Shown here one piece after another: positions 6,639 through 42,628 of a stretch of 64,000 nt of DNA. The DNA comes from Patescibacteria group bacterium. Its GTDB lineage: Bacteria; Patescibacteriota; Microgenomatia; UBA1400; MFAQ01. The notes under the pieces are model-generated. The model ran no database searches, was not told the origin of the DNA, and was given only the letters and a program-made list of their open reading frames with translations. The position numbers were made by a program, and so were the translations under genes. The stretch lies in contig CALRDV010000001.1 of assembly GCA_943355005.1 (NCBI GenBank), forward strand, positions 242,059 through 306,058. Direction: 5' to 3'. Every line of letters begins with the position of its first letter. Position 1 is the stretch's first letter.

Positions 6639-6656
6639 CGATACGCTACATCACCA

Positions 6657-7856
6657 ATGAAAGTTTACGAATACAATGACCTAGACATAGCTCCTCTCAT
6701 TATCGATGCTGTGTATAAAAGCAAAAGTACTCTATTTGGAGATGGGCCGCTTGGGAAATTATTGCCGAAGATTGGCAATCAAGGTGGCTTTAGGTGTGTT
6801 AAGAGACAAGATAGTAGCGGTCAAATTGCGTACATAGTTTTGTACACCTCAGGTACTGAAATAGACTGGCCAGATTCACTTGATGTAGAGACGGGTATAT
6901 GGCGTTATTTTGGTGACAACCGAACCCCAGGAAAGTCATTATATGATACTCCTGCTAAAGGGAATCGTTACTTGAGTGATATTTTTGCTAGGATCGATAC
7001 ACCAGCAGAAAGAGCTAACATACCTCCATTTCTAATTTTTCAGTGGGCTGGGAATCAATTTGACGCAAAATTCCTCGGCGTGGCTGTTCCAGGCAACCCA
7101 AATATTCCTCCCGATAAAGAATTAAATGCGATATGGAGATCAAAGAATGGAAATAGATTCCAAAATTATGAAGCTTACTTCTCAGTTATCGATACGGGCC
7201 GAGAAGAAATATCGAAAGAATGGCTAAAGCTTTTGATTAGCGATCATAAAACCAGTATTTCGTTTGCCCCAACAGCGTGGAAGCAATTTATTAAATTTGG
7301 AAGACAAGGCATAAAACCTCTTTTATCTCCAAAGGGCTCTGAAATTCCCAATAAAGTGCAACAATTACCTCAAGATTCCAGTGGTAAAAAATTATTGCAA
7401 AAGATTCGTGACTACTACAATGACAATCCCTTTGGTTTTGAATTATGCTCCACAAAGATAGTTCAAATGATGGATAATAATTTTGAATTATTTGAGTTAA
7501 CACGTCCTTGGCGTGACGGCGGGAGAGACGCAATCGGCAAATACAAAATTGGGAATAGCCATAATCCGTTATTAGTAGAATTTGCGTTGGAAGCTAAATG
7601 TTACTCTACAGAAATTTCTGTTGGCGTCAAATCAATGTCAAGGCTAATTTCTAGGTTGAAGTATCGTCAATTCGGCGTTCTTATTACTACAAGCTATGTC
7701 CATTCACAGGCTTATAAAGAAATCGTGGAAGACGGACATCCAATCCTCGTAATAAACGCTTCAGACATTGCAAACATACTAAGGGCACATGGAACCAATT
7801 ATCAAAATGTTGATACATGGTTAAGTCAGATTGATCAGGAAAACATCGAGGCTTGA
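6657..7856 (+). CDS. Putative restriction endonuclease. An unknown N-terminal domain is fused to a C-terminal Mrr-like PD-(D/E)XK core (GGRDAIG...VEFALEAK).
   Basis: The C-terminal motif resembles the Mrr/restriction-endonuclease catalytic core. The gene lies immediately downstream of dcm in the same orientation. Confidence 0.4.
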   Translation: MKVYEYNDLDIAPLIIDAVYKSKSTLFGDGPLGKLLPKIGNQGGFRCVKRQDSSGQIAYIVLYTSGTEIDWPDSLDVETGIWRYFGDNRTPGKSLYDTPAKGNRYLSDIFARIDTPAERANIPPFLIFQWAGNQFDAKFLGVAVPGNPNIPPDKELNAIWRSKNGNRFQNYEAYFSVIDTGREEISKEWLKLLISDHKTSISFAPTAWKQFIKFGRQGIKPLLSPKGSEIPNKVQQLPQDSSGKKLLQKIRDYYNDNPFGFELCSTKIVQMMDNNFELFELTRPWRDGGRDAIGKYKIGNSHNPLLVEFALEAKCYSTEISVGVKSMSRLISRLKYRQFGVLITTSYVHSQAYKEIVEDGHPILVINASDIANILRAHGTNYQNVDTWLSQIDQENIEA

Positions 7857-7944
7857 GCCTTTGTTTAGTCGTACCCGCTAGAATACATGATTTAAAACTC
7901 TGAACTTCTAAAGGTTTTCAACGCATAAGTACGCAAATTGTGCA

Positions 7945-9354
7945 CTAGGCAATAATTTCTTTCAACTTTTCCCAAATTTTCACCATTGCCAGAGTGTCTA
8001 ACCCACAGTATTTGAGCAGTGATTCAGTAGTTTTCTGTTTTGCCTCCGCATCTGTACTATGTATCATCTCCCACCACGCAATCATGGCCATATCTCCCTT
8101 ATTGATATCAAGATCGTTATAGCTTAGCTCTGGTACCATGACGGGCAAAACATTTTTAATCGACCATCGTCCCTTAAAGTCTGGGTGAAGATAATATCCC
8201 TTAGACACGATTTCCATGAGATCGAACATTCGATTGTTAATATCGACTAAAAATTCTTTGTATTCAGGGTATAACTCTCCCATTTCCTTATTTTGTCCTC
8301 CCTCAAACCCTTTATTCCAGACAATGATTGATCCTGTATCGCAAATACGGCTTCTCAGATGCTTGAGTAGGTCTTTTGCTGGATCGCCTTGCTCTCTGGC
8401 AAGATACTCTTCATGTTGAATTTCATCGTTATTATTACTGACTATATGAAGGGAATACTGGAATACCATCTTTTGGTACGGTTTATGCCCTCGATAGAGT
8501 GGCATGGCTTCGTCATAGGTTTCGTAGTCTAAGAAATATAGTGGGTATATAAGGCCCTGTAGTAGCCCTCTGACCGTAGGTTTATCCAAAAAGGGAGTCC
8601 TGCTTTGCAATACATCCACAATCTTCTGTTGTTTTGGCGTGAAGGTGAAATTTAGGTCTACGTCATTGATTGCGATGGTTTTGGCATCTTCAAGCTCACG
8701 ACGTTTCTTGGGCGTAAGGTTTGGGACATTGTAGATCGAATATGGTGGCAAATCAGGGTGACATAAATCAATGCATGGGCAACTCTTGGGACTTAGACAG
8801 TTTAGGACTGATGAATATTCATCTAACTTGATTATTCTGAGCGCATCCCTCATTTGTGCAAGTACGTTTACGGTCATTTCCTCAACATCTGTTGTAATGT
8901 CCGGTACTTTGAATAATTGTTCGATATCAAGAGAATCACCTCGAACATACTCGTCATTTAGTAGTACGAGGTGGATCTTATCCACGTTGAGTGAGTCGCC
9001 GATTACAATTGACTGGACGGTGGCATCTGGTAGATGATCCTTTTTCTCTGATGTAGAGCTTTTTATTTCGTAGATATCATAGGTATCTGTGTCTAGGTTA
9101 TGGATAATTCCATCAGCCCTAGATTGATACTCGCCTGACACGTATGTTTGTTGCCACAGTAGTTCGGCATGTTTGTATTTTGGAAGTACATATTGCGTGA
9201 GGTAGTCATGTGCAACCTTTTCAACCTGATAGCCTTGCTTCATGAGGTGCTGGTCATACGTAGATGGAGCAGTTATTTGTAGTTTGCCGTGATCCTTTGC
9301 CCATAAATGCATGGGTGCCTCGAGATATAGGAGAAAATCTGATTTCGTTAGCAT
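7945..9354 (-). CDS. DUF2779-like predicted nuclease (LYFLDYETY motif)
   Basis: The conserved YFLD(F/Y)ET motif and Cys-containing region are typical of DUF2779. Confidence 0.45.
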   Translation of the reverse strand: MLTKSDFLLYLEAPMHLWAKDHGKLQITAPSTYDQHLMKQGYQVEKVAHDYLTQYVLPKYKHAELLWQQTYVSGEYQSRADGIIHNLDTDTYDIYEIKSSTSEKKDHLPDATVQSIVIGDSLNVDKIHLVLLNDEYVRGDSLDIEQLFKVPDITTDVEEMTVNVLAQMRDALRIIKLDEYSSVLNCLSPKSCPCIDLCHPDLPPYSIYNVPNLTPKKRRELEDAKTIAINDVDLNFTFTPKQQKIVDVLQSRTPFLDKPTVRGLLQGLIYPLYFLDYETYDEAMPLYRGHKPYQKMVFQYSLHIVSNNNDEIQHEEYLAREQGDPAKDLLKHLRSRICDTGSIIVWNKGFEGGQNKEMGELYPEYKEFLVDINNRMFDLMEIVSKGYYLHPDFKGRWSIKNVLPVMVPELSYNDLDINKGDMAMIAWWEMIHSTDAEAKQKTTESLLKYCGLDTLAMVKIWEKLKEIIA

Positions 9355-10757: not shown

Positions 10758-11383
10758 AATGATCCTTCCTCAAGCCAAGAACGCATTTGATCAATTTCCT
10801 TTTCCTGAGCTGTAATAATATTTTGACCAAGCGTCTTCATTTCCGAGCGATTTGTTCCAGAGAGAAGCATTTGTGCCATCATTACAGCCATTTGATGGTG
10901 AGGAATCATTTCTTGTAAGAAAGCTTCATCAAAGTTGGTAGAATTTTTTAATGATGTAATATCAGATGTACTACCTCCCATCATGCCGCCTTGCATCATA
11001 CCTCGTCCCATTCCCATGCCGACTGCAGAGTCTACTGGTACTTCTGCTTTATACCAGTCTTTGTACCAACCTTTCATCTGAGTAATTTCTTCAGATTGGC
11101 TTTTAATAATCGCGTTAGCAAGATTGAGTATATTAGTATTTTTGGAGCGTACCTGAGCGAGCTTTGCCATTTCAATAGCGCCTTCATGGTGTGGAATCAT
11201 CTGTTCAATAAAATGTTTATCTATAGCACTATTGATTGAAGAGGTGTTATTTCCTAGCCGGATACCCATCATTTGCATCATCCCGTAATTATTGTTATTC
11301 ACTACACTTGTTGTTAGCACAAAAGTTAATAGACTGCCTGCTAACAAACCTATGACTAGATAAAGAATTGATTGATTTTTCAT
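10754..11383 (-). CDS. DUF305 metal-resistance protein (two IPHH repeats), signal-anchored
   Basis: MIPHHEGAI and MIPHHQMAV repeats, an N-terminal TM segment and a Met/Gly-rich linker. Confidence 0.75.
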   Translation of the reverse strand: MKNQSILYLVIGLLAGSLLTFVLTTSVVNNNNYGMMQMMGIRLGNNTSSINSAIDKHFIEQMIPHHEGAIEMAKLAQVRSKNTNILNLANAIIKSQSEEITQMKGWYKDWYKAEVPVDSAVGMGMGRGMMQGGMMGGSTSDITSLKNSTNFDEAFLQEMIPHHQMAVMMAQMLLSGTNRSEMKTLGQNIITAQEKEIDQMRSWLEEGSL

Positions 11384-11427
11384 ATATTCATCATATCAGT
11401 TTTGGCTTAACAAGCATAACAATAATT

Positions 11428-11937
11428 CTATTTTTGCAAGGGTTTACTCTCCAAATATTTTTTAAGATTCTGTCCCTCCTCTTGAATATGTTTCCTCATT
11501 GCTTCGGTTTTTACAAATAGTTGAAAGATTTTATCCAATAAAGCAAAGTGGTTTCCGTATTCTACGCGGGCAGTGAGTTTGGATAACTTATCTGATATAC
11601 GCTCTATGGCAAAAGATCCCATTCCCAAGTTAAATATTGAAAGAGGAAATATTGGTTTATATTCAATAAATTCATTCTTCTTTAATTTTGAGACCGTAAG
11701 GATTAAGTAAAGCGGAAAACCACCGATTATTTCCAAAAAATGAAAAATACAACCTCGTTCATTTAAATCTTTATATAGAGTTTTACAAAAAATATGGTCT
11801 TTGGGATGCCAGACTTTATAAAGAGAATCTATTCTAGAAAGAAAATTGAATATATTCTCAGGATTTGCTTCAATAATTGTTTCTTCTTTAATGGAGATCA
11901 TATTACCAAAACCTCCAACCTTTAAGGATCCTCTCAT
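11428..11937 (-). CDS. Hypothetical protein, SRPBCC-like
   Basis: ORF only; weak fold-level resemblance. Confidence 0.3.
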   Translation of the reverse strand: MRGSLKVGGFGNMISIKEETIIEANPENIFNFLSRIDSLYKVWHPKDHIFCKTLYKDLNERGCIFHFLEIIGGFPLYLILTVSKLKKNEFIEYKPIFPLSIFNLGMGSFAIERISDKLSKLTARVEYGNHFALLDKIFQLFVKTEAMRKHIQEEGQNLKKYLESKPLQK

Positions 11938-12839: not shown

Positions 12840-14042
12840 TTATAATATACTCACTACTTTTTTTAACTCACGAATAAAAACCTCTGCTTCGTTCATAGTA
12901 TTGTAAAAATAAACCGAAGCCCGTACTGACCCAGGGATTTGATGGGCGTAAAACCAGGAATGGACACAATGTTGGCCAGAGCGAATCATAATTTTTGATG
13001 TTTCGTCAAGCATAAGTGCAATCTGGTGATGGTCTTTTCCGGGAATATAAAAAGAACAGATTCCACCACGCTCTTTTGGATCGGATGGCCCAATGATTTT
13101 TAGTCCAGAGATGGTTTTTAGTTCTGTGGTTATATACTTGTTTAACATTTGTTCTTGTTGTTCTATAAATTCGAATCCAATTGTATTCAGATAATTGACA
13201 GCGGCACCAAGACCAATGATGCCGGCATAGTCTTGCAATCCTGCCTCAAATTTTTCAGGGGGTGGTAAAAACTCATGAGTTTCGTAGGTTGAAGAGGCTA
13301 CCGTGTCTCCTCCAACCATGAACGGATCTAGTTTCGTAAGGAGTGAATATTTCCCGTACAAAACTCCAGTGCCAGATGGGCCAAGCATTTTGTGTCCCGA
13401 GAAAGCGAGAAAATCTACATCAAGGTCTTGTACATCGATTTTTCGGTGAGGGACAGCTTGAGCGCCATCAAGGAGCACTAACGCGCCTGCTTTATGTGCT
13501 AACGTTATAATCTCATTGGCAGGGATCGTTACTCCATCTAGGTTCGAAGTAAATCCCAGCGACACCAATTTCACCCGGTTGTTTAGTGCCTGTTTATATG
13601 CCTCAAGATCAAAAGTGTTGTCTTCTTTGGAATAGATGATTTTGTACTCAATGCCAATTTTATCTCGCAAGACTTGCCAGGGGATAAGATTGGAATTATG
13701 TTCTTTGTCAGAGATAATCACAATATCTCCCGCTTTAAGTCCAAGCGAGTGTGCGACTAAATTGATCCCCTCGGTGGTATTTCTGGTAAACACGATCTCT
13801 TCTTTTCGCTTAGCGTGCAAAAATGTAGAAATAATCGAGCGCGCCTCTTCACATTTGTGAGTTACTTTAGCAGCCAGGTGATGCATGCTACGCCCTCCAC
13901 ATGCAGGGTAGTCTTGGTAATACTCATTTATAGCCTCAATCACCTGCTTAGGTCGCAAAGTTTGACAGGCATTGTCAAAATACACGACTTTGCAGTCGCG
14001 GAGTAATGGAAAATCCTGTCTGTGAGTATTCATATTTTTCAT
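12840..14042 (-). CDS. sufS: Cysteine desulfurase (SufS/CsdA, class V aminotransferase)
   Basis: The PLP-lysine motif SGHKMLGPSGTG and the C-terminal RSGQHC active-site Cys loop. Confidence 0.85.
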   Translation of the reverse strand: MKNMNTHRQDFPLLRDCKVVYFDNACQTLRPKQVIEAINEYYQDYPACGGRSMHHLAAKVTHKCEEARSIISTFLHAKRKEEIVFTRNTTEGINLVAHSLGLKAGDIVIISDKEHNSNLIPWQVLRDKIGIEYKIIYSKEDNTFDLEAYKQALNNRVKLVSLGFTSNLDGVTIPANEIITLAHKAGALVLLDGAQAVPHRKIDVQDLDVDFLAFSGHKMLGPSGTGVLYGKYSLLTKLDPFMVGGDTVASSTYETHEFLPPPEKFEAGLQDYAGIIGLGAAVNYLNTIGFEFIEQQEQMLNKYITTELKTISGLKIIGPSDPKERGGICSFYIPGKDHHQIALMLDETSKIMIRSGQHCVHSWFYAHQIPGSVRASVYFYNTMNEAEVFIRELKKVVSIL

Positions 14043-15943
14043 ATATTCTTAGTTTGATCAAAAGAAAATAACCGTAATCCGTTAGCAACAACTAATACGG
14101 TTACCCCCACGTCAGCAAAAATAGCTAAAGCCAGGCTACTTTTACCTAAGAGAGCTAGAGCAAGAAAAATGAACTTAACACCAATAGCTGCAGCAACATT
14201 TACTTTAATAGTTTGATTAGCGTTACGTCCTAACTTTATCAAGAAAGGAATAAGAGTCAGATTGTTATTCATGAGAGCAATATCGGCGTTTTCTACAGCG
14301 ACCTCAGACCCGATGGCTCCCATAGCTATGCCAACTGAAGCAGTTGAGAGTGAGGGAGCATCGTTAACACCATCACCGACCATCGCAACGTTTTTGTATT
14401 TTTTAACCAAGTTTTTGAGCTGAATTACTTTTTCGTCAGGCAAGAGTCTGGCATGAACCTCATCAATGCCAACTTCTTTGGCAACATAGCCAGCAGCCGA
14501 AGGATTGTCACCGGTTAGGATGACCGCTTTCACTCCATTTCTATGTAATTGTTTTATTGTTTGAGCACTCTCTGGTCTGATTTCATCAACAATTCCCAAA
14601 ACGCCTTCAATCTTGTTATCGTCGGTGACAACAATAGCAGTTTTCCCTTCCTTTTCAAATTGCTCGACAATTTTAATTACACGCTCGTCAACTTTGTGTT
14701 CTTCCATGACAAACTGAAGAGTGCCGATACAGTGATGCTTATCGACACAAACGAGACACTCACCACTAATACCTTTCCCCATAATCGCTTTGAAATTTGC
14801 ATACTCATGGTCTTTTTCTGGAAACAGTTTTGAATTCTCGATGATACTTTTGGCGATAGGGTGTTCGGAAAATGCCTCTGCGCCCGCCACGCAAGCCAGT
14901 AGTTCGCCCTTAGTGTAACCGTTAAGTGGTATGACATCAGACACCATCGGCTCTCCTTTGGTGAGCGTACGGGTTTTGTCGAAAGCAACTGCTCTGATTC
15001 GACCCATTTCTTCCAAAAATTGGCCACCCTTAATTAAAACGCCTCTCTTGGTAGCATTTCCAATGGCAGAAAAAATCGTAATGGGGGTGGAGATAACTAA
15101 GGCACAAGGACAAGCAATTAAGAGAAGGGTTAGACTTTGAGGAAACCAAGCATTGAAAGGCTGCCCAAGGATAACAACAGGTATGGCAGTAAGAAAAATG
15201 GATGCAATAAATACAACCGGGGTGTAATAAGACGCGAATTTTTCAATGAATCTAGCGGCTTGAGATTTGTGTTCCGCTGCTTGGAAAGTCAAATCTATAA
15301 TCTTGGCAAGCGTTGTGTCTTTGGAAGTCTTTGTTATTTTAATCTCCAGGTATCCCTGGCTGTTTAGTGTACCGGCATAAACCAACTCACCTTCATATTT
15401 ATTTTTTGGAAGTGGTTCGCCGGTAATAGTACTCTCATCAACCAACGACTCGCCTTTGACGACTACACCGTCAAGGGGGATATAGTCACCCGGTTTTACC
15501 ACCACAATGTCATCAATCGCAATATTTTCGATTGGAGTTTTGATTTCCTGTCCCTTAATGAGTGCCGTTTTTGGAGTTTTATCAACCAATTCCTCAAGAG
15601 CGTTTTGACTGCGGGTAATGCCAAATTCTTCCAGCGCTTCGCTAACGGCAAACAAAACTATGATAATTACCGCTTCTTCAAGCTCACCTAAGTAGATAGC
15701 TCCGAAGGTAGCTACTGTCATCAGTAAGTTGATATTAGAAAACTTAAGCCGGATTAAGCCCTGCAAACCACCAAATATGACGTCTTTCCCGAAGAAATAG
15801 ATAATGCTTCCAAAAAGGGGGTACTCTATAAACCATGGCAGGTGGTAGGAAAAAAGCGACAACAACTCCAGGGGAACTATTAAACCAAGCGCTGCAAATA
15901 GACGCTTGAATTTTGTTTCTTTAAATAATTCCGATATAAGCAT
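14039..15943 (-). CDS. P1B-type heavy-metal ATPase with no N-terminal metal-binding domain, a CPC motif, and an atypical DKTRT phosphorylation motif
   Basis: CPCALVISTP, DKTRTLT (G to R confirmed at DNA level) and VGDGVNDAPSL. Confidence 0.85.
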   Translation of the reverse strand: MLISELFKETKFKRLFAALGLIVPLELLSLFSYHLPWFIEYPLFGSIIYFFGKDVIFGGLQGLIRLKFSNINLLMTVATFGAIYLGELEEAVIIIVLFAVSEALEEFGITRSQNALEELVDKTPKTALIKGQEIKTPIENIAIDDIVVVKPGDYIPLDGVVVKGESLVDESTITGEPLPKNKYEGELVYAGTLNSQGYLEIKITKTSKDTTLAKIIDLTFQAAEHKSQAARFIEKFASYYTPVVFIASIFLTAIPVVILGQPFNAWFPQSLTLLLIACPCALVISTPITIFSAIGNATKRGVLIKGGQFLEEMGRIRAVAFDKTRTLTKGEPMVSDVIPLNGYTKGELLACVAGAEAFSEHPIAKSIIENSKLFPEKDHEYANFKAIMGKGISGECLVCVDKHHCIGTLQFVMEEHKVDERVIKIVEQFEKEGKTAIVVTDDNKIEGVLGIVDEIRPESAQTIKQLHRNGVKAVILTGDNPSAAGYVAKEVGIDEVHARLLPDEKVIQLKNLVKKYKNVAMVGDGVNDAPSLSTASVGIAMGAIGSEVAVENADIALMNNNLTLIPFLIKLGRNANQTIKVNVAAAIGVKFIFLALALLGKSSLALAIFADVGVTVLVVANGLRLFSFDQTKNI

Positions 15944-19690: not shown

Positions 19691-20683
19691 TCAATATTGG
19701 GAACTAAAATTTCTGAGAGATTGTTTCGACATGTGGCTTTGCATATCTAAGAGAGCCCTCTGACGGCACACTAGGGCGCAATTGTCGCTATTATCAGCAC
19801 ATAGCACAACTGCGTCACCACCTGATTCATGAAGCTCTATCGCTTTGACTGGAGTGACCATCAAGCCTACGAGAATTAGAAGCGAAATAATACTCAAGCT
19901 TAAATTTTTATAACCGATTTTATTGTAGGTAGTCTTCTGTGAATAAAGTGATTGAATCCTAGCTTCAAGGCTATCTTCAGAAATAATATCAGGGATAAAA
20001 GCAAAGTGTGGCATCGGTTCATATCTTAAAAGTTTTTTTAAGACCTCTCCGATCGACTTATTTTCACTCATTCCATATACCGCTTCAGAATCCGCATGGA
20101 TTTCCCTACCGGTACGATAAACTCTGACAAAATCTGAGATAACTGGGAAAAATGGAAATAATGATTCAATCATGCTGGCTATAAAAAGGGTTAATGAGTC
20201 TCTATGCTCCAAATGAGACTTTTCATGCCTAAGTATTACCTCAAGCTCATTCATACTCATGAGTTCAATCATCCCTGTTGATACATAAATCTTGGGGCTC
20301 GTGATGCCAAAGCAGAAAGCTTGAGGCTTATTTTGATTAATAACCGATACATGGTTAGTTAGCCCAACTTTATCCAAAAGATCCGCAAGACCTTCGTATT
20401 TATTTACCGCCTGCTTTTTAAGTCTTAGTTTAAGAGAATATATTGCGATGATAGTTTTGAGTATTTTAAACAGAGTAAATAATGCTCCAAAGAAGAGGAC
20501 TCCAACAATTATTTTTCCCAAATCACCAGGGAGATGTAGATTCAACGCATTAACCATTTCTTGACAATAATAGATACTGTGGTGAATCAGTATTTGAAAG
20601 TATTTAAATACGACAAAAAAATAACTTATCATCAAAAACGATAATAGACCGACAAAGCCTATCAAGTAATTATTTATTTTCAT
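19691..20683 (-). CDS. M56-family (BlaR1/MecR1-like) membrane metalloprotease. It lacks the penicillin-binding sensor domain and has a Cys-rich C-terminus.
   Basis: HEKSHLEHRD (HExxH), four TM segments and a C-terminal C-x6-C-x3-C motif. It overlaps the blaI-like gene. Confidence 0.7.
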   Translation of the reverse strand: MKINNYLIGFVGLLSFLMISYFFVVFKYFQILIHHSIYYCQEMVNALNLHLPGDLGKIIVGVLFFGALFTLFKILKTIIAIYSLKLRLKKQAVNKYEGLADLLDKVGLTNHVSVINQNKPQAFCFGITSPKIYVSTGMIELMSMNELEVILRHEKSHLEHRDSLTLFIASMIESLFPFFPVISDFVRVYRTGREIHADSEAVYGMSENKSIGEVLKKLLRYEPMPHFAFIPDIISEDSLEARIQSLYSQKTTYNKIGYKNLSLSIISLLILVGLMVTPVKAIELHESGGDAVVLCADNSDNCALVCRQRALLDMQSHMSKQSLRNFSSQY

Positions 20684-21125
20684 TATGTTTCTCCAAGAGT
20701 TCTAAAAAGTATTTTTTCTTTTCTTTGGGCAGCTCTTCAATTGATTCAGCAAATGAAGCGATCGCTGTATCTCCAAATGACTGAAAAAACTTATTAAAGA
20801 AGGAGCCAGCTATTGATTTGCTGTAATCCTCTTTAGAAATTTTTGGCGAGTAAAGAATGGCAAAGTCTTTATCGTTTCTTTTGAGTAAACCCTTCTCTTG
20901 AAGTCTTGAAAGTACGGTTGCAACGGTTGTGTATGCTAATTCTTTTGTTTCAGATATCTTTTTTAGTACATCACGGACTGAACATGAGTCGTTATCCCAA
21001 ACGATGTTCATTACTTCTTGTTCGAGTTCGCTCAAAGCTTTTATCTTCATATGTCTACTACAGATTGTAGAGACTACCATGAAACATATCAATAGATATT
21101 TGATAGCAGAGATTAATATCAACAA
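20670..21125 (-). CDS. BlaI/MecI/CopY-family transcriptional repressor. The likely true start is the ATG at 21050 (MKIKALSELEQ...).
   Basis: A winged-helix N-terminus typical of the penicillinase-repressor/CopY family. It is immediately upstream of the M56 gene. Confidence 0.75.
   Translation of the reverse strand: MLILISAIKYLLICFMVVSTICSRHMKIKALSELEQEVMNIVWDNDSCSVRDVLKKISETKELAYTTVATVLSRLQEKGLLKRNDKDFAILYSPKISKEDYSKSIAGSFFNKFFQSFGDTAIASFAESIEELPKEKKKYFLELLEKHNENK
21054..21077. promoter_or_regulatory. TACA/TGTA-type dyad (CTACA-GAT-TGTAG overlapping GTAG-AGA-CTAC), a putative BlaI/CopY-type operator
   Basis: Perfect palindromes read directly. They lie 4-27 nt upstream of the probable blaI/copY start. 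Confidence 0.45.
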
Positions 21126-21196: not shown

Positions 21197-24100
21197 TTAT
21201 TTTGCTTCGCTAATTTTGAATCCTTCTTTAACAAAGTGGTAGTTATCAGCCACTGAGTTAGATTTTGCCAAGACTCCTGAAATGATCACGTCATTCCCGA
21301 AGAATCCGGAAATAGTGTCGCCTTCTTTGGTGAAAAGCTTTTCCTTCATCATCAATTGGGCTTCATCGTAGCCGATATACACTGGTGTGTATTTCTTGCC
21401 ACCAATATAGACAGTATTAAATCCATCGCTTGGGAGTTTACTAGCTAACTCCTTGGAGGAGGTGCCGTTGATCATATAAAACTGCTTTTCCATGCCTTCC
21501 GCAGTTTTGGCTAGGACTACGTTTTTATCGACCTGTACTTGACCGGTCTTTTCCTTATTTTCCATATTTGTAGGTGCGGCCATAGTAGAGCTGAACCTGG
21601 CAAACTCGATAAACAAGAAAGTGAACGCTATCATCATGACAGCTGGTGCAAACATTGAGATATAGTTCTTCTTTCCTGGCTTGTAACGGCGCAAGAGTAG
21701 TGAATTCCCTACAACTGACACAGAACTTAAAGCCATGGCAAGGCCTGCAAGCTCTGGCTTTAATACCAATCCGACGAACGAGAATATGCGTGCGGCAATT
21801 GGAATTCCGATGACGTTATAGAAGAGCGCAAAGAACATGTTTTGCTGTATCTTCTGTACGGTCGTTTTGGAAAGTTCCAATGCGTGCACAACATCCCGGA
21901 GATCATTTTTGATAATCACGATGCCACCAGTTTCCATGGCCACATCCGTGCCAGATCCCATGGCAATACCCAAATCAGCTTGAGCAAGTGCGGGTGCATC
22001 ATTAATACCATCTCCAACCATTGCTACTTTCTTACCAGCATCTTGAAGTTTTTTGACTTCATTAGCTTTGTCCTGAGGCAATACCTCTGCCAGAATGTTT
22101 GTTATGCCAACCTGAGAGGCAATGGCTTTGGCAGTTTTTGTATTGTCACCAGTAATCATCCAGACCTCGATACCCATTTTGGTAAGCATTTCAACGGCTT
22201 CTCGAGAAGTCTCCTTGACGGTATCGGCTACTCCAATGAATCCAAGAACTCCCTTTTTGGTCGCCAGAATCATGGCAGTTTTACCTTGTTCTTCCAGACG
22301 AGTGAGCTTTCGGTCGAATTTGGCTATGTCTAAGCCCAACGTATCAGTAATGAGCTTACGGTTGCCAAAGAAATACTCAACTTTTCCAATCGTTCCTTTT
22401 ACACCATGCCCTGGAATGGCTGAGAATTTATCCACTTCTTTGAGAACAACCCCTTCTTCCTGTGCATAAGAATATATGGCTTCAGCTAGTGGATGTTCAG
22501 ATTGCTTTTCGAGACTAGCCGAAATCATGAGCACTTCTTCCTCGTCAAGTTCCCCTAAGTCCTCTACATCCGTCACTTCGGGCTTGCCCTTGGTGATCGT
22601 GCCTGTTTTATCAAAAACAATAGTATTGATCTTGCTGGCACTCTCAAGAGGCTCTCCACCTTTGATGAGGATCCCATGCTCAGCACCAACCCCAGTACCT
22701 ACCATAATGGCCGTAGGGGTAGCTAGACCAAGCGCACACGGGCAAGCAATAACAATCACGGCAGTGAATGCCATAAGGGCAAATGAGAGTGGTGCCCCCA
22801 AGAAGAAGTACCAGACCACAAATGTGAGCGCAGCTATCGCGATAACGCCTGGTACAAAGTATGCAGAAATACGATCTGCTACTGCCTGAATAGGTGCTTT
22901 AGACCCCTGCGCATCCTCAACGAGGCGAATGATCTGGGATAAAGTGGTTTCCGATCCAATACGGGTTGCCATAAACTCGAAGCTACCTACTTTATTAATA
23001 GTTCCGCCGATAACCATATCATCAACATGTTTTTCAACCGGCATACTTTCTCCCGTGATCATTGATTCATCGACTGAGGAGGAACCTTTCATAATTACGC
23101 CGTCTACTGGAACCTTTTCTCCGGGACGAACCACAATAATGTCATTTTTCACAACCTGATCAGTTGGGATATCTAGAGTTTCACCATTTCGTATTACTCT
23201 GGCAGTTTTTGCCTGAAGTCCCATGAGTTTTTTAATTGCCTCACCAGTTCTTCCTTTTGCTTTTGCCTCGAGATATTTACCCAAGATGACAAAGGTGATT
23301 AAGAACGCTGCTGTTTCAAAATATAGCTCTGGAATCTTCGCTCCAGCCAATCCAATAAGAGAATTGGTGGTCGCGTAGTACTGAATAAAATTGACAGCAC
23401 TGTAAAAATACGCCACTGATGTACCTATGGCTATCAGGCTATCCATGTTAAAGGTACGCATCTTTAGAGCTGAAATCATACCTTTATAGAAGCTCGAGCC
23501 GGTAATAAATTGAACCGGAGTAGCTAAAATAAACGACACTATGCCTATATAAGGAAGAAGTGTTTTACCACCAGGCAAGAAACTAAAGAAATCAAGGAAC
23601 ATGAAATATATCATTGGGAAAGATAAGATCAGGGCAAACAAGAACTTTTTCCATTGCCCTTTGATTTCTGATAATTGACGCTTGGCTTGAGCTTGTGAAT
23701 CTTCTGAGCTGGCTAGCATTCCCTTATATCCAGCTTTTTCCACTGCTTTTATTAGATCATCAGTTTTTGCTGATCCAGTGTTATAGAGAATCGAAGCTTT
23801 TTCTGAGGCAAAATTAACTTTTGCTTCTGCAACTCCCGGAACTTTCTTTAATTGACGTTCGATAATAGATGCACACGATGAGCAGTGCATGCCTGAAATA
23901 ACTAGGCTAGTCCGTTCTGTTTTACCTGTTAGGGCAACTTGTGATACAACGCCTTCAGATGTTATGGATTGTCCAGATTCTGTTCTTTGTGCTGATCCGA
24001 AACGCAAGATTCCTTTAATTGTCCAGTGTCCATCCTCGTCTTGGCCTACTTTACCGTCAATTTCAATTTCTGGAGGAAGTGTAAATAATGGCGTTGCTTG

Positions 24101-24340
24101 CTGTGCAAGGTTCATGCCTGTTTTTCCCACGATGAGACTCTGATACCCGGCACTTTTTACCGCGTCTATAATCGCCTGATCGGTTACCTGGCCATTGGTA
24201 GTGATAATTGTTGCTTTTCCAGCTTTGTGATCGACACTCACATCTTTGATCCCCGGAAGGGAAATAAGTTCGTCTTTAATCAGCATTTCGCATGATTGGC
24301 AGTGCATTCCTTTAATATCTAAGTTGATTGTTCTTTTCAT
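21197..24340 (-). CDS. copA: Cu(I)-translocating P1B-1 ATPase CopA with two N-terminal HMA domains, plus an extra C-terminal TM helix and a C-terminal domain of about 150 aa
   Basis: GMHCQSCE and [25 protein letters not shown] and [10 protein letters not shown]. After the canonical last TM there is another hydrophobic helix ([23 protein letters not shown]) and then a Met-containing soluble domain. Confidence 0.9.
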
Positions 24341-24352
24341 ATGTTTTTTGTT

Positions 24353-24556
24353 TTAAATGGTTTTATATGGTGTATCTTTCAATACGTTATTAATTTCTTG
24401 GGCAGAAATTTCTCGATTTGCCTCGATTGCTACCAGTCCGGTTTCAATCGTAGTTTCAACATTTGTAACGCCATCCAGCCCTCCTATTCTTTTTTCAGTA
24501 ATTTTTTTACAGGCTGGGCAGGTAAGGCCTGATAATTTAATGGTTTGTTTTTTCAT
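24353..24556 (-). CDS. copZ: Copper chaperone CopZ (HMA domain)
   Basis: GLTCPACKKITE; 67 aa. Confidence 0.8.
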   Translation of the reverse strand: MKKQTIKLSGLTCPACKKITEKRIGGLDGVTNVETTIETGLVAIEANREISAQEINNVLKDTPYKTI

Positions 24557-24567
24557 AATTTCCTCCT

Positions 24568-26382
24568 TTAAATAACTTGTATTTGACCTCTTTGCATCCC
24601 CATACCACAGGTAATGTTGTATGTTCCTTTACTCGTTGGGGTAAATTCAAAGACTACTTTTTCTCCTTTGGTTAATATTTCAATCTTTTGAGTGAGCGTG
24701 GGTACCGTAATGCTTCCCATGCACCCCTGACCATCTTCCTTGGCATCAATTTCAAATCGTACAGGTTGGTTTGCCTTGACGGTAAAGGTGTTTGGCTGGA
24801 TGTCACTGCTTGCGGTGTATGTCGTTTTGATAAGTTGGACATTTCCTTGGTTGACCGTTTCGCCCGCAGGTAAATTGTTATTTTGTGCAATAACCTGCTT
24901 TTTGGCACCGCAACCACACCCTCCGCCACTAGCACTGCACGAACCCGCCGCCTGTGTATTTTGTGTTTGTGTCGTACTGGCTATTTGGGTGGTAGATGGG
25001 GCACTGCCAGTTTCATCAACTACTGTGAACGATCCGGTATACATCCCCATGAGACATGAGAAACGAATGGTGCCTGTTTCTTTGGGAGTGAACTCAAAGA
25101 CATTTTCTCCGAGCTCTAAGCTTTTACGAATACCAAGCTGTTGGGAAACAATGCTGCTGGCACAGGAATAGATATCCTTTGATGTTACTATCCATTTAAC
25201 GGGAATACCTTTTTTAATCGTGAATTTATTCGGTGAATAGCCAGATGATGCTTGAGTCATACGGACAACTTGCACCCCATTTACCATAGTGACATTTGGA
25301 TCAGACTTTGCAGTCGCCTTTGAAGTAACTGCACCAAGTACCTGTGGAACACCCAGGAGATTTAATCCATTTCCGACATTAAAAAATGCAAGCATAATGA
25401 CGACCACTCCAGCTGTTTTGAAGAATAATCTCGCGCCATTTCCCTTGACGACTGATGTTAATCCGCCAACTCCCAAGAGACCAGGTGCTGTACCGAGGGC
25501 AAACACACCCATCGTTAAAGCTCCTTGTATGGGACTACCAGTACTCATAGCAAAGAGTTGCATTGCTTGGGTAAAGCCACAGGGGAGAAAGAAAGTAGTA
25601 GCTCCCATGATAGCTGCGTTTTTATTGCTATATTCAAGTTGCGTTTTCTCAGCAATACCAAGCATCCTGGATAATCCCTTGGGAAGAGTAAAGGATACTT
25701 TTTTCAAGATAGGAAAGATGTCGATTAACTGGCCTCCAAGAAGAAGCATAACTAATCCAACGGCTACCGTTAATAAACCAAGAACTGACGTGGATAATTG
25801 AAAGAATGATCCGGCTAACCCGATAACGCCACCAAGAATGGTATATGAAATGATTCTTCCAAGATTGAAAAACAAATGCGGCTTGAACTTTTCCATACCT
25901 GTTGCATTGGGGAATTGCTCAGAAAACCGAGATGAGGCACCAAGAACTAAGCCTCCAACGAGCGCCATACACGTAGAGACGCCAGCAGTTAAACCGACCA
26001 AGAAAACAATGGGAAGGCTAGAGTAACTACCTGAGATCGACTTACTTAGATCGAAAAGTCCGACGGATTTTGCAATTAGAAATAATGCAGTGGTGATAAA
26101 GAAAGCTATACCGACATCAATGTAGTCTCTGTGATTGCGGGAAAAGAAATGAATTTTGCCGTCTTCGCCAATCGTATAACCAGCTTTTTCAATAGCTTGC
26201 TTAACTTCGTTACCATCTAACTCACAGTCGCAGTTCACATCAGCAATTCCTGTTTTATGATTCACATAAACAGACTGGACGCCACGAACTTTTTTAAGTT
26301 CATCTTCAATTAATATCTCGCATGATCGGCAATGCATTCCTTTGATTTGGATTTTTTGTTTGCTCATTGTTAGAGCATACAA
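24568..26382 (-). CDS. Fusion protein: N-terminal HMA domain, DsbD_2/TauE-like polytopic membrane domain, and two C-terminal cupredoxin-like beta-sandwich repeats (C...C-x-MGM motif)
   Basis: GMHCRSCE; a multi-TM core with an intramembrane PCG motif; two about 75-aa repeats ending in FSCLMGMYTG and ITCGMGMQRG. The probable start is the ATG at 26367. Confidence 0.6.
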   Translation of the reverse strand: MYALTMSKQKIQIKGMHCRSCEILIEDELKKVRGVQSVYVNHKTGIADVNCDCELDGNEVKQAIEKAGYTIGEDGKIHFFSRNHRDYIDVGIAFFITTALFLIAKSVGLFDLSKSISGSYSSLPIVFLVGLTAGVSTCMALVGGLVLGASSRFSEQFPNATGMEKFKPHLFFNLGRIISYTILGGVIGLAGSFFQLSTSVLGLLTVAVGLVMLLLGGQLIDIFPILKKVSFTLPKGLSRMLGIAEKTQLEYSNKNAAIMGATTFFLPCGFTQAMQLFAMSTGSPIQGALTMGVFALGTAPGLLGVGGLTSVVKGNGARLFFKTAGVVVIMLAFFNVGNGLNLLGVPQVLGAVTSKATAKSDPNVTMVNGVQVVRMTQASSGYSPNKFTIKKGIPVKWIVTSKDIYSCASSIVSQQLGIRKSLELGENVFEFTPKETGTIRFSCLMGMYTGSFTVVDETGSAPSTTQIASTTQTQNTQAAGSCSASGGGCGCGAKKQVIAQNNNLPAGETVNQGNVQLIKTTYTASSDIQPNTFTVKANQPVRFEIDAKEDGQGCMGSITVPTLTQKIEILTKGEKVVFEFTPTSKGTYNITCGMGMQRGQIQVI

Positions 26383-26431: not shown

Positions 26432-28675
26432 TCAGACAGTTATCAAGTCTTTTTCAGCTCGTTTCAGGAGTACTGCGTTTGTAGCCACGATAATTGAAGA
26501 AATACTCATAAGAAGCGCGGAAAATTCTGGGCGTAAAGTGATACCATAGCGTGGATAGAGTACCCCAGCAGCGATTGGGATTGCCAAGATATTGTAAATA
26601 CTTGCCCAGACTAGGTTTTCCTTCATTTTTCTGACTGTGGCTTTAGAAAGTCGGATTGCTCGTAATATATCGGCAGGATCTGATTTCATGAGGACCACCT
26701 TGGCCGTTTCTATGGCTACATCGGTTCCTGCACCAATTGCAATCCCAATATCGGCCTGAGCCAAAGCTGGGGCATCATTTACCCCGTCGCCAACCATGGC
26801 AGTAAATTTACCCTCTGATTGGAGTTTCTTTACATACGAGGCTTTGTCTTCCGGTAATACTTCAGCAAAAATTCTATCTATACCCAGTTCTTTCCCAATC
26901 GCTTCAGCAGTTTTTTTATTGTCTCCGGTAATCATGGCAACTTCGAGTCCCATTTCCTTCATGCGGGTAACAGCTATTTTGGCGTTTGCCTTAATTGGAT
27001 CAGAGGCAGCGGCGACACCTGCGATTTTTTTATCTACTGCAAGTATCATGATCGTTTTTCCTTCTGAGAGCAGGCGGTCAATATCAGTTTGTAAGGTTGT
27101 CGTGTCTACTTTCCAGTCATTCATGAGCCTTGTTGTACCAACAAGCACATGTTTGCCATTTACTATAGCCTCAACGCCATGACCGGCAAGGTTATTGAAT
27201 TTTTCTACCTTTGATGGAACAACAATCTTTCTTCGCTTCGCTTCCTCAAGGATAGCCATGCTTAATGGGTGAGAAGATTTGGCCTCAGCAGCACTGTCCA
27301 GCTCAATTATTTGATCCTCTGTGAAGCCTTTGGCTGCCACTACGTCGGTTATGCGAGGCTTTCCTTCGGTGAGTGTGCCGGTTTTATCCAGTACTACCGA
27401 TTGTATCTTTGATACCTGTTCAAGAGTTGGTGCATCTTTGATGAGAATGTTATGTTTCGCACCAAGTCCCGTACCTACAGCTACCGCAGTTGGGGTGGCC
27501 AACCCAAGCGCATCTGGGCAAGCAATGACGACGGTCGAGATTGCAAAAGTAAGTGCTAATAGGAGAGGTTGCCCAAGTACAAAAAACCAGACGGTAAAAG
27601 TCAAGAGTCCACCACCAACAGCCACAATTACTAAATACTTTGCAAACTGATCAGCAATTTTTTGTCCGGGGGCTTTGGAGTTTTGAGCGGTTTCTACCAT
27701 CTTCACAATTTGGGCGAGCGCTGTATCTTCTCCAACCTTAGTCGCCTTAAACTTTACAGAACCCGAGGTGTTAATTGATCCGCCAATGACAGAATCTCCA
27801 ATCGACTTGGAAACAGGTAGCGATTCGCCTGTGACGAGCGATTCGTCGATGGCAGTCTCTCCCTCGATAATCTCACCATCAACAGGCACTTTATCACCAG
27901 GTTTTAAGATCAATATGTCACCAAGCACAATACTCGCTGTTGGAACCATTGATTCCACTCCATTTTTCCATAATCTGGCTTGCGGGGGAACAAGGTTAAA
28001 TAAGGCCTGAAGTGCATCGGTGGTGCCACGACGTGACTTCATTTCCATCCAATGGCCAAAGAGGACGAAAGTGATAAGCATCGCAGCAGCTTCATAATAT
28101 GAGTCACTACTTCCAAGGAGCGTTAAAACAACACTAAATCCGTAGGCAGCCGTAATACCCACAGCGATAAGAACCGACATGCCGAGGCGAAGCGTCTTGA
28201 GCTCAAAATAGGATGAATATAAGAATAACCAACCGCTATAGAAGAATACTGGCGTGGTAAGAATAAAAAGTAACCAAGGAATAGGTAGCGGGGATGGTAA
28301 ATTCCAGCCAAACATCGTTCGACCCATTGAATAAGCAAGAATTGGGATCGTAAGAAGTAGTGCGAAGAAGAATTTGTTTCTGATATCTTCTTCCATCAGT
28401 TTCGCCATTTCTCGTCCGGCGAGTCCCGTATGATCCATACCCATGGTCATAGTCATACTCATTTTGAGTTTTTCCCAAATGGACATCTCGGACGTTAGTT
28501 TCATCGTATGAGCTTTATGTTCCGAATGACCCATCTCTTCATGGTTCATTTCAACAGGAACGAGCGTCATGCCACACTTGGGACACTTCCCTGGCTTTTC
28601 TTTCCTGATTTCTGGATGCATCGTGCAGGTATACATGGTCATTTCCATAGGTTTCATACTTACTTCATTATGCAT
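26432..28675 (-). CDS. P1B-type Cu/Ag ATPase with an N-terminal HMBD (C-x-MHPE...GKCPKCGM) and a Met-rich segment. It has an unusual CPD transmembrane motif.
   Basis: [44 protein letters not shown] (verified in DNA), DKTGTLT and GDGVNDAPAL. Confidence 0.85.
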   Translation of the reverse strand: MHNEVSMKPMEMTMYTCTMHPEIRKEKPGKCPKCGMTLVPVEMNHEEMGHSEHKAHTMKLTSEMSIWEKLKMSMTMTMGMDHTGLAGREMAKLMEEDIRNKFFFALLLTIPILAYSMGRTMFGWNLPSPLPIPWLLFILTTPVFFYSGWLFLYSSYFELKTLRLGMSVLIAVGITAAYGFSVVLTLLGSSDSYYEAAAMLITFVLFGHWMEMKSRRGTTDALQALFNLVPPQARLWKNGVESMVPTASIVLGDILILKPGDKVPVDGEIIEGETAIDESLVTGESLPVSKSIGDSVIGGSINTSGSVKFKATKVGEDTALAQIVKMVETAQNSKAPGQKIADQFAKYLVIVAVGGGLLTFTVWFFVLGQPLLLALTFAISTVVIACPDALGLATPTAVAVGTGLGAKHNILIKDAPTLEQVSKIQSVVLDKTGTLTEGKPRITDVVAAKGFTEDQIIELDSAAEAKSSHPLSMAILEEAKRRKIVVPSKVEKFNNLAGHGVEAIVNGKHVLVGTTRLMNDWKVDTTTLQTDIDRLLSEGKTIMILAVDKKIAGVAAASDPIKANAKIAVTRMKEMGLEVAMITGDNKKTAEAIGKELGIDRIFAEVLPEDKASYVKKLQSEGKFTAMVGDGVNDAPALAQADIGIAIGAGTDVAIETAKVVLMKSDPADILRAIRLSKATVRKMKENLVWASIYNILAIPIAAGVLYPRYGITLRPEFSALLMSISSIIVATNAVLLKRAEKDLITV

Positions 28676-38516: not shown

Positions 38517-39287
38517 TTAGTCATTTTCTACTTTAACTTTGTATAACACTTCTCTTAATAAGCCTTTGGATTTTATATCCGATCTTAACGAGAGATAAAA
38601 CGATAATTCAGGACTTTGCTCTAGCTGCTTTTGAATTTGAAGGTTTGTATAGTTATATGATCTTGTATCCGGACATGCAAGGATAATTGCCGGAAAGGCA
38701 TTTTTGTTATGATCCTGCCAGTAGGCATTTTCAAAGTATTGAAAATATTGGCGGATACGTTTTCTTATCACCATTCTGGCTGGGAGTTCATCAAATACAT
38801 CGAGAAAGTAACTTTTTTTGTTCCCGTTCGGTTCTTCTATAGAAAAATAGGCATCTGGATGAGGCAATATCAGATACTTTAAACCCAGTAGATCAGTCTT
38901 AGTGTAGAAATGTAACTTTGCCCCAGTAGTTTTGACGAGCTTTACAAGGGATAAATAGCAATCTGCTATAAACAGGCAATGTTCGCGAAATTGATTTGAT
39001 AAGGTATGCTCTCTCCAGACTCTATCAAGAACCGTTAATTTAATCTGTTTAAGCTCTGGATTATCTTTTAAATATTTTCTTCCTTTAAGTCCTAGTGAAT
39101 ATACTGCGGGTAAAGTAACAGTTTTAGGGTTGTAGTAACGTCGGATATGTTCAGATGCGGTAAGTTGATCGAGCCAGATAATAATGCGATTAAATTGTTT
39201 ATGATTAAGTAATTGTTGAATATGGTTTCTATTTAAGAATCGGAATTTGTAGAGATGTAGTAGTATGTGATCTTGTTGTGTGTTCAT
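38517..39287 (-). CDS. Replication-relaxation (Replic_Relax) family protein
   Basis: N-terminal ILLHLYKFRFLNRNHIQQL, typical of Replic_Relax proteins in conjugative or integrative elements. Confidence 0.55.
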   Translation of the reverse strand: MNTQQDHILLHLYKFRFLNRNHIQQLLNHKQFNRIIIWLDQLTASEHIRRYYNPKTVTLPAVYSLGLKGRKYLKDNPELKQIKLTVLDRVWREHTLSNQFREHCLFIADCYLSLVKLVKTTGAKLHFYTKTDLLGLKYLILPHPDAYFSIEEPNGNKKSYFLDVFDELPARMVIRKRIRQYFQYFENAYWQDHNKNAFPAIILACPDTRSYNYTNLQIQKQLEQSPELSFYLSLRSDIKSKGLLREVLYKVKVEND

Positions 39288-39406
39288 GGTTGTTAGATAG
39301 TATTAATTATTCCATTCTCTTCCTTATATATAAGGAATATAGATGTAGGGATTTTGATTGTATTTAGCCTTAAGATATCGCATTTTCAGTGTAAACACGC
39401 TTACAC

Positions 39407-42316: not shown

Positions 42317-42455
42317 AGATTATATCGAACTATATCAAGTATTGAAAGAGAAGAAAAGCGCTCAATATGAGGGTAAATAAAGCGCTTGACATTATCCCTA
42401 GAGGGATAGTATATTATCTCTATAGGCATAATGATAATTTAAGAGAATACAGATA

Positions 42456-42628
42456 TGGGACGAATAAAAGGTTCAACAAATAAGACTTCTACAAGCAGAG
42501 TAATAGCTTCAACCTTATCACCTTCCGAGCGCGTTCAATTTATTGCTAATTTAATCATTGATCGAATTATTAAAGATCAAAATAACGGCAAACCACTGCT
42601 CAAGAAATTATCTATAGAACAATTATGA
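42456..42628 (+). CDS. 57-aa small ORF translationally coupled (ATGA overlap) to the serine recombinase; possible HTH/recombination directionality factor
   Basis: ATG..TGA ORF below the track cutoff. Its stop overlaps the recombinase start. Confidence 0.3.

Follow-up and report, generated by a model that had tools for sequence, protein, structure and literature searches.

The pump gene and its C-terminal extension

The window, i.e. the whole stretch of 64,000 nucleotides from a Patescibacteria group bacterium that was analysed, carries a copA gene that continues well beyond the canonical eight-helix copper pump. In one frame with the pump, it encodes a ninth transmembrane helix (TM9), a linker, and a domain that is predicted to lie outside the cell. 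Nucleotide positions refer to the window and residue numbers to its CopA protein (amino acids, aa). The features of the gene are as follows:

21197..24340, minus strand: whole gene, CopA-type P1B-1 ATPase with C-terminal TM9 and predicted extracytoplasmic domain; 1047 aa plus stop, a single unbroken open reading frame (ORF)
23711..24340, minus strand: N-terminal cytoplasmic region with two HMA metal-binding domains (aa 1-210; Pfam HMA twice; CQSC at aa 14, CSSC at aa 153)
21683..23710, minus strand: canonical eight-helix P1B-1 core with A, P and N domains (aa 211-886; from the motif search and the ends of the NCBIfam matches)
21593..21667, minus strand: TM9 (aa 892-916), after the basic loop KPGKK (from Kyte-Doolittle hydropathy and charge bias)
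21524..21592, minus strand: variable hydrophilic Met-containing linker of about 23 aa (aa 917-939; poorly conserved columns)
21200..21523, minus strand: predicted extracytoplasmic domain of about 108 aa (aa 940-1047), of the second-repeat (D2) type (from the family profile)
21197-21199, minus strand: stop codon of the copA gene

The core looks like that of an ordinary CopA. Pfam recognizes HMA twice, E1-E2_ATPase and Hydrolase (HAD), and the NCBIfam model of the copper-translocating subfamily (TIGR01511) aligns with aa 338-884 at 627.3 bits, the cut-off being 397. All motifs of a Cu(I) pump were found, namely TGES (429), CPC (533), DKTGT (577), GDGIND (776), YN(x4)P in the form YNVIGIP (841), and MALSS (869). 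The protein is a Cu(I)-type P1B-1 ATPase by its subfamily score and by its catalytic and ion-site motifs, with CPC in helix 6 (M4) and YN(x4)P and MxxSS in the final two helices of the core. P1B-1 pumps are also defined by eight helices with both termini in the cytoplasm; here, the window CopA differs, as it has a ninth hydrophobic helix and a C-terminus predicted to be outside.

The NCBIfam ATPase models all stop at aa 883-889, and aa 890-1047 are covered by none of them. A sequence-only reading of this DNA had proposed that the core ends at LLLRRY and that the ORF continues with an additional hydrophobic helix. Both points were confirmed: LLLRRY corresponds to aa 881-886, the family models end at about aa 884-889, and the basic loop KPGKK is followed by the hydrophobic segment aa 892-916, whose mean Kyte-Doolittle value of 2.07 is on par with the eight canonical helices. 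The extension was also correctly located at about 21197-21700. Its soluble part had been described as Met-containing and about 150 aa long; Met residues are present, but the length was overestimated, as 131 aa follow TM9 (linker about 23, domain about 108). The 161-aa tail as a whole has nine Met, one His, and no Cys. Most of the substitutions relative to close relatives fall in the linker, and the part of it that was included in the structural models described below had the lowest predicted local distance difference test score (pLDDT).

A search with the tail alone gave other CopA C-termini and separate proteins at E = 1e-59 to 1e-15. The best matches were CopA C-terminal fragments with the same helix and tail (61-64% identity, E = 1e-58 to 1e-59); two proteins of about 255 aa, in which a hydrophobic N-terminus is followed by two tandem copies of the domain, were also found. 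Together with the 188 clusters of the family profile described below, these matches exclude a chance resemblance. Among the 120 closest full-length CopAs (67-100% identity), 41 have one copy of the domain, 53 have two copies, and 26 have TM9 only, stopping about 10 aa after this helix with its motif retained. With the domain in frame in 94 of the 120, the fusion is genuine and shared by orthologues. One of the 120 is identical to the window CopA and stems from an independent public record (NCBI/ENA).

The ratio of non-synonymous to synonymous substitution rates (dN/dS) relative to three close relatives is 0.08-0.24 for the tail vs 0.02-0.03 for the core, and TM9 shows 7-8 synonymous changes and no non-synonymous one. 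Because of the tail dN/dS and the lack of non-synonymous changes in TM9, the extension is taken to be translated and constrained, although less tightly than the pump.

Side of the membrane

CopAs described so far have eight helices and cytoplasmic ends (PMC7558416), and therefore a ninth span would put the tail outside. The charge distribution points in the same direction. In 138 fused homologues, TM9 has a mean Kyte-Doolittle value of 2.1, and the net charge is +4.0 before and -0.24 after it. In 62 separate proteins, Lys and Arg together amount to 3.2 in the N-terminal flank vs 0.95 after the anchor. TM9 and the anchor of the separate form are thus predicted to share the orientation N-in, C-out. 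Cys is absent from 190 of 195 domain instances, and the remaining five have exactly two each, at the same two alignment columns; such a co-occurring pair looks like the signature of a disulfide in an exported domain. The odd helix count had led the sequence-only reading to place the tail extracytoplasmically, which is supported by the charge bias, the N-terminal anchor of the separate homologues, and the paired Cys. From these four lines, we infer that the domain lies outside the cell.

The domain family and its link to CopA

An exhaustive profile search gave 188 clusters at 50% identity, 159 of them below 1e-10. Most clusters are two-copy proteins of about 250-270 aa, and about ten are full-length two-copy CopAs of about 950-1125 aa. 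The separate form consists of a single N-terminal anchor and two domain copies (about 260 aa). When scored with hidden Markov models of the two repeat types, the window domain gave 115.7 bits for the second (D2) and 66.2 bits for the first (D1).

For a locus scan, one genome per species was taken, which gave 25 loci, and the six-frame ORFs were then scanned. The domain is part of the CopA ORF, in one or two copies, at 18 of the 25 loci, and a separate two-copy gene lies within one gene of copA at five of them; two loci were uninformative (short contigs). The two separate proteins of the first search (L001 and L002; L numbers designate loci) are encoded 14 nt and 10 nt downstream of copA. Including these two, all 25 informative loci have the domain either inside the CopA ORF (18 loci) or in a separate gene no more than one gene away from copA (7 loci). 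Among the fused loci are those of metagenome-assembled genomes (MAGs) labelled Microgenomates, Gottesmanbacteria, Doudnabacteria, Moraniibacteriota, Saccharibacteria, Peribacteria or Patescibacteria. Those of the five separate-gene loci of the scan are labelled Micrarchaeia or archaeon (three), Acidobacteriota (one), and delta proteobacterium (one).

The family is dedicated to CopA, with an exclusive genetic tie: the domain is fused in MAGs labelled as Patescibacteria, ultrasmall bacteria of the candidate phyla radiation (CPR), and has its own gene beside copA in Micrarchaeia (DPANN archaea) and in two further MAGs. The strongest evidence that the domain works with the pump is this pattern of fused and adjacent forms in two domains of life. 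Of the architecture and its link to CopA, we are highly confident.

Some records deserve a separate remark. Assemblies labelled Gammaproteobacteria, Pseudomonadales or Bdellovibrionales (L003-L005, L007, L012-L014, L016-L018) share their cluster with Patescibacteria-labelled MAGs (49-97% identity, up to 97% to the window), and judged by these sequences, the labels look unreliable. In L019 (a Saccharibacteria-labelled MAG), a lone one-copy domain ORF (11184-11582) lies about 4.7 kb downstream of a fused two-copy CopA. In L024 (a MAG labelled delta proteobacterium; 6535-8731), copA beside a separate domain gene is split over four overlapping ORFs, which reflects either a pseudogene or assembly errors.

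In public annotation, these proteins appear as “hypothetical protein,” “P-type Cu(+) transporter” or “heavy metal translocating P-type ATPase”; an example, taken from a MAG of Daviesbacteria, is UniRef A0A0G0QRK9. A full-text literature search found no description of the nine-helix architecture or of the domain. The N- and C-terminal variations mentioned in a 2020 review are cytoplasmic only (PMC7558416).

Loss of the domain

In a neighbour-joining tree of the pump core (identity distances, midpoint root), one clade is mostly two-copy with a few one-copy proteins nested, and the second clade is a mixture in which proteins with one copy alternate with TM9-only proteins at no fewer than eight places. 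A relocated domain copy was not found within 4 kb in the TM9-only loci L028 and L029, nor was a second copy found in the window. Because the forms interleave in the tree and no copy lies within 4 kb, the domain has been reduced and lost many times while TM9 was kept. Therefore, the domain is an accessory to transport and not essential to the cycle, as the pump works without it. The retention of TM9 suggests that this helix has a role of its own, selected independently of the domain. A comparison of TM9 with the N-terminal anchor of the separate proteins, for which a fusion by stop-codon loss would predict homology, gave no signal above shuffled controls.

Conserved residues

Conservation was counted over the 195 domain instances (window CopA numbering):

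952: K, 86%
954: F, 95%
990: G, 97%
993: E, 94%
994: A, 93%
996: M, 71% (Leu in the window)
997: M, 96%
1000: E, 82%
1007: G, 93%
1008: D, 87%
1014: F, 91%
1015: G, 95%
1027: T, 91% (Ser in the window)
1032: D, 99%
1035: H, 89%

E993, M997, and E1000: These residues stand at positions i, i+4, and i+7 of a modelled helix and, by helix geometry, are predicted to lie on one face of it.

D1032 and H1035: A domain has about one His on average, which is the conserved H1035. Positions 1033 and 1034, Asn and Tyr in the window, are often Met in the family. Met makes up 3.6-4.0% of the domain.

First- and second-repeat domains keep the same residue set, including ExxMMxxE and D-x-x-H. Outside the domain, TM9 ends in the motif F-x-E-F-A-[RK]-F-S-S-x-M, with Glu at 87% and the final Met at 91%, and this motif is retained where the domain is gone.

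Fold of the domain

No Pfam or NCBIfam family matched the tail, the separate homologues or 44 diverse family members at E <= 5-10, with the exception of a weak match to MacB_PCD, and a search of the family profile against PDB sequences gave nothing at E <= 10. AlphaFold2 predicted the domain with a pLDDT of 82.7 from a 9-sequence alignment and with a pLDDT of 91.0 and a predicted TM-score (pTM) of 0.84 from 44 sequences. The modelled fold has three units of a beta-hairpin plus helix, followed by a final strand. Foldseek searches with the two models gave the periplasmic domains of LolC and LolE and a HrtB-type haem exporter as the top solved matches. These are weak (E 0.02-0.4, probability up to 0.94, query-based TM-score (TMq) 0.45-0.48), and none reached E <= 1e-3.

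The sequence-only reading had considered the tail as CusF- or CopC-like. This proposal was not borne out: searched alone against CusF, CopC, and other families, the tail had no match in Pfam or NCBIfam, and CusF, CopC, cupredoxin, and HMA folds were absent among the best 50 of 233 Foldseek PDB matches (E <= 10) of the model with pLDDT 91. An identity with any of these four is thus ruled out by Pfam, NCBIfam, and Foldseek. The models of CopC/PcoC and PCuAC did not match either, and those 50 structures included no OB barrel, Ig-like sandwich, cupredoxin or ferredoxin-like fold of a copper-binding domain. The first small profile also matched the designed proteins Ika8/Ika4; this match was spurious, as it covered 30 profile positions only and was gone with the larger profile.

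A motif GD...V.GV.L in the domain had suggested membership in MacB_PCD (PF12704). Of 44 diverse members, one gave a weak match (E = 0.09) and the window tail gave none, while one further family member (P0031) matched at E = 0.045 with 14.5 bits vs a cut-off of 27. Comparison with E. coli LolC and LolE by hhalign gave a probability below 1%. Its register aligned IG..A....GD...V.G.L....D with LolE 145-207 and left a gap at the FFG turn, presumably at the position of the Hook of LolC. Membership was rejected in view of the missing PDB sequence match, the single weak match among the 44, and the hhalign result. Judged by the models, MacB_PCD appears to be the nearest weak structural neighbour of the domain and not its family. 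The ectodomains of LolC, LolE, and HrtB belong to MacB-type (type VII) ATP-binding cassette (ABC) permeases, in which they sit between TM1 and TM2 of an FtsX-type permease, whereas the CopA domain follows a single helix of a P-type pump or a lone anchor.

Gene neighbourhood

Two genes upstream of copA also encode proteins with HMA domains:

24353..24556, minus strand: CopZ-like single-HMA chaperone gene, just upstream of copA (Pfam HMA; same position in L028, L029, and L030)
24568..26382, minus strand: HMA, about seven hydrophobic helices (DsbD_2), and two Cupredoxin_1 domains (Pfam; CLMGM at 443 and CGMGM at 592, each C-x-M-x-M)

The HMA, DsbD_2, and Cupredoxin_1 gene is found upstream of most fused bacterial copA genes; the same gene occurs in L003-L022, L028, and L029. 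At the archaeal loci, small Cupredoxin_1 genes flank the pair of copA and domain gene. We take the C-x-M-x-M motifs of the 24568-26382 protein to resemble the Cu(I) site of CupA. An odd helix count would put its cupredoxin domains outside, beside the CopA tail.

Directly downstream of copA lies a BlaI/CopY-family repressor (Penicillinase_R; 20670-21125, minus strand), followed by a membrane protease of the BlaR1/M56-M48 type (19691-20683, minus strand), which overlaps the repressor gene by 14 nt. Because the repressor is without the C-terminal Cys motif of Enterococcus CopY, a protease-coupled switch in the style of BlaR/BlaI may control the cluster.

The region 10754-33539, which is nearly all on the minus strand, is a dense metal-handling island. 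Besides the CopA described above, it encodes two more P1B ATPases, one of the Zn/Cd type that has no metal-binding domain (14039-15943) and one of the Cu type with HMBD (26432-28675). The island also has two DUF305 proteins, four DsbA-like thioredoxins, one protein each of the YtkA/FixH-like, SurA_N_3, and cupredoxin_1 kinds, and a HisKA/OmpR two-component pair. Further along, 38517-44409 encodes a Replic_Relax protein, a TrwB/HerA-like coupling ATPase, and a serine recombinase, whose ORF runs into the tRNA-Glu(ctc) gene at 44290-44364 (minus strand). An integrative mobile element seems to have its edge in this region, and mobility of the metal island is possible.

A proposed tethered copper acceptor and its alternatives

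For the role of the domain, we propose a tethered Cu(I) acceptor or relay, to which we assign, from the sequence evidence, a probability of about one half; the sequence-only reading had likewise suggested a built-in Cu acceptor, and the conserved residues fit such a role. In this mechanism, the flexible linker (about 23 aa) and the compact alpha/beta domain (about 108 aa) would be held on the outer side of the membrane by TM9. There, the domain would sit beside the exit of the pump and accept the Cu(I) that the pump releases. A putative low-affinity Cu(I) site may be formed by the face E993-x-x-(M)-M997-x-x-E1000 together with D1032 and H1035, and Cu(I) uptake is possibly assisted by the Glu and Met conserved where TM9 reaches the outside. 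The domain could then pass the ion on, for example to the cupredoxin-type domains of the same cluster, or free it away from the membrane, and in this way it would modulate export as an accessory.

The conservation of the putative ligands argues for such an acceptor, as E993 (94%), M997 (96%), Met at 996 (71%), E1000 (82%), D1032 (99%), and H1035 (89%) are kept alike in both repeat types. Met with His or carboxylate and without Cys is the chemistry of extracytoplasmic Cu(I) sites such as that of CusF (PMC7558416). The transient sites by which Cu(I) enters and exits CopA use this kind of ligand as well. On this basis, an acceptor or relay would be the most economical reading. There is a precedent: CopA delivers Cu to periplasmic chaperones, CusF among them, and does not simply set it free, and the Cu ligands in CusF are Met and His (PMC7558416).

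Several observations weigh against a copper acceptor. M997 and A994 may be part of the helix core, as the hhalign register sets both on the buried LA..L pattern of LolC/LolE. The window copy has Leu at 996, is without the two Met between D1032 and H1035, and has fewer Met than the family consensus. The fold resembles no known copper chaperone. Finally, the domain has been lost repeatedly among close orthologues: the 26 TM9-only proteins among 120 are scattered in the core tree, and no replacement lies within 4 kb at two loci.

The main alternative, which we consider less likely, keeps the domain outside and tied to CopA but metal-free, i.e. as a structural or regulatory ectodomain that stabilizes the pump, gates the exit or docks a partner, which might be the cupredoxin-domain protein, the cell envelope or an S-layer. 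It would then resemble the single-span ectodomain subunits known from other P-type ATPases, or the ectodomain of a MacB-type permease. This would fit with the weak solved neighbours, which are only the ectodomains of LolC/LolE/HrtB; these hand over proteins or ligands and do not bind metal. Moreover, the conserved Ala, Met, Leu, and Phe may make up a hydrophobic core, many lineages do without the domain, and the cupredoxin-domain neighbour is conserved. However, Met (96%) and His (89%) are kept, whereas core positions usually tolerate Leu, Ile or Val. In addition, Glu occurs at i and i+7 on the same helix face, the sole His per domain is the conserved one, and the same residues recur in both repeats.

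We regard it as improbable that the domain is a surface domain unrelated to copper, serving host or envelope interaction in episymbionts, and that it merely accompanies copA as mobile islands move. In favour of this, nearly all reports of the family are from CPR- or DPANN-labelled MAGs, and the metal island adjoins relaxase, coupling-protein, recombinase, and tRNA genes. Yet the 25 of 25 informative loci with the domain fused to or within one gene of CopA come from bacteria and archaea with differing neighbours, and hitch-hiking would hardly account for a domain that was fused in frame to a single partner again and again.

Still less probable is a hydrophobic segment that does not span the membrane or forms a hairpin, which would leave the tail in the cytoplasm, where it would regulate the pump or bind metal as the C-terminal site does in CopA of Archaeoglobus fulgidus. 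Cytoplasmic C-terminal metal sites do occur in some CopAs (PMC7558416), but the segment has 20-25 aa at a Kyte-Doolittle value of 2.1 with a strong positive-inside bias, and the separate homologues begin with a hydrophobic anchor typical of exported proteins. In addition, the tail has no CxxC and no Cys at all, whereas thiolates serve cytoplasmic Cu(I) sites, and the co-occurring Cys pair of a few members does not fit a cytoplasmic location either.

An artefact, i.e. a frameshift, read-through or assembly chimera that joined copA to a downstream ORF, has a negligible probability: the archaeal domain gene 10-14 nt after copA means that loss of a stop codon would yield the fused architecture, but a frameshift or separate ORF is excluded by the unbroken ORF, the recurrence of this in-frame fusion at 18 independent loci in genomes and, across many samples, in 94 of the 120 closest homologues, the identical protein of the independent record, and purifying selection on the junction (TM9 with 7-8 synonymous vs no non-synonymous changes; tail dN/dS 0.08-0.24).

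Comparison with known copper pumps and their partners

The CopAs of E. coli, Legionella pneumophila, and Archaeoglobus fulgidus share the core with the window CopA (two HMA domains, TGES, CPC, DKTGT, GDGIND, YN(x4)P, and MxxSS). Described CopAs stop on the cytoplasmic side, a few residues past helix 8 (PMC7558416); the window CopA adds TM9, the linker, and the predicted outside domain. The C-terminal site of A. fulgidus CopA is likewise an extra C-terminal element, but it is cytoplasmic, binds Cu, and directly follows helix 8 (PMC7558416), whereas in the window CopA, a helix lies in between, there is no Cys, and the domain is predicted to be outside. New with respect to an ordinary CopA would be the nine-helix topology, the outside domain of an unannotated family, and the alternative form as a separate gene.

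With CusF, CueP, CopC/PcoC, and PCuAC, the domain shares the proposed role, i.e. Cu(I) acceptance at the outer face, and the Met/His/carboxylate chemistry without Cys. These proteins are soluble, whereas the CopA domain is tethered or membrane-anchored and has no kinship to them in sequence or fold. The organisms that carry the domain are not known to have an outer membrane or a periplasm. Single-span ectodomain subunits of P-type ATPases are the beta subunit of Na,K-ATPase and Cdc50 of the P4 flippases; they offer an analogous arrangement of one helix with an outside domain, which in the case of CopA is either fused or encoded by a separate gene. The sequences are unrelated. To our knowledge, single-span ectodomain partners have not been described for P1B pumps.

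Cu(I) release from P1B pumps is only partly understood. The documented case of an acceptor is mainly that of CusF with CopA in E. coli (PMC7558416). For organisms that have no periplasm, we are not aware of a comparable partner, and the literature search found none. The present analysis names a domain family that is concealed by current annotation, and it documents a nine-helix P1B pump. Even if the domain binds no metal, it would still be, as far as we know, the first ectodomain-type accessory element reported for this pump class. A bolder proposal, which we make tentatively, is that the domain would be the first extracytoplasmic protein known to serve a P1B copper pump exclusively and to be physically attached to it, in organisms not known to have a periplasm. 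It would be a Met/His/carboxylate relay, possibly derived from a MacB-type ABC permease ectodomain, that receives Cu(I) straight from the CopA exit and delivers it to outside cupredoxin-type domains. If this holds true, the natural fusion would be a ready-made complex to visualize ion release by P1B pumps. As it is repeatedly fused to or located beside CopA, the domain is a strong candidate for an acceptor partner and offers a one-polypeptide system for structural and transfer work.

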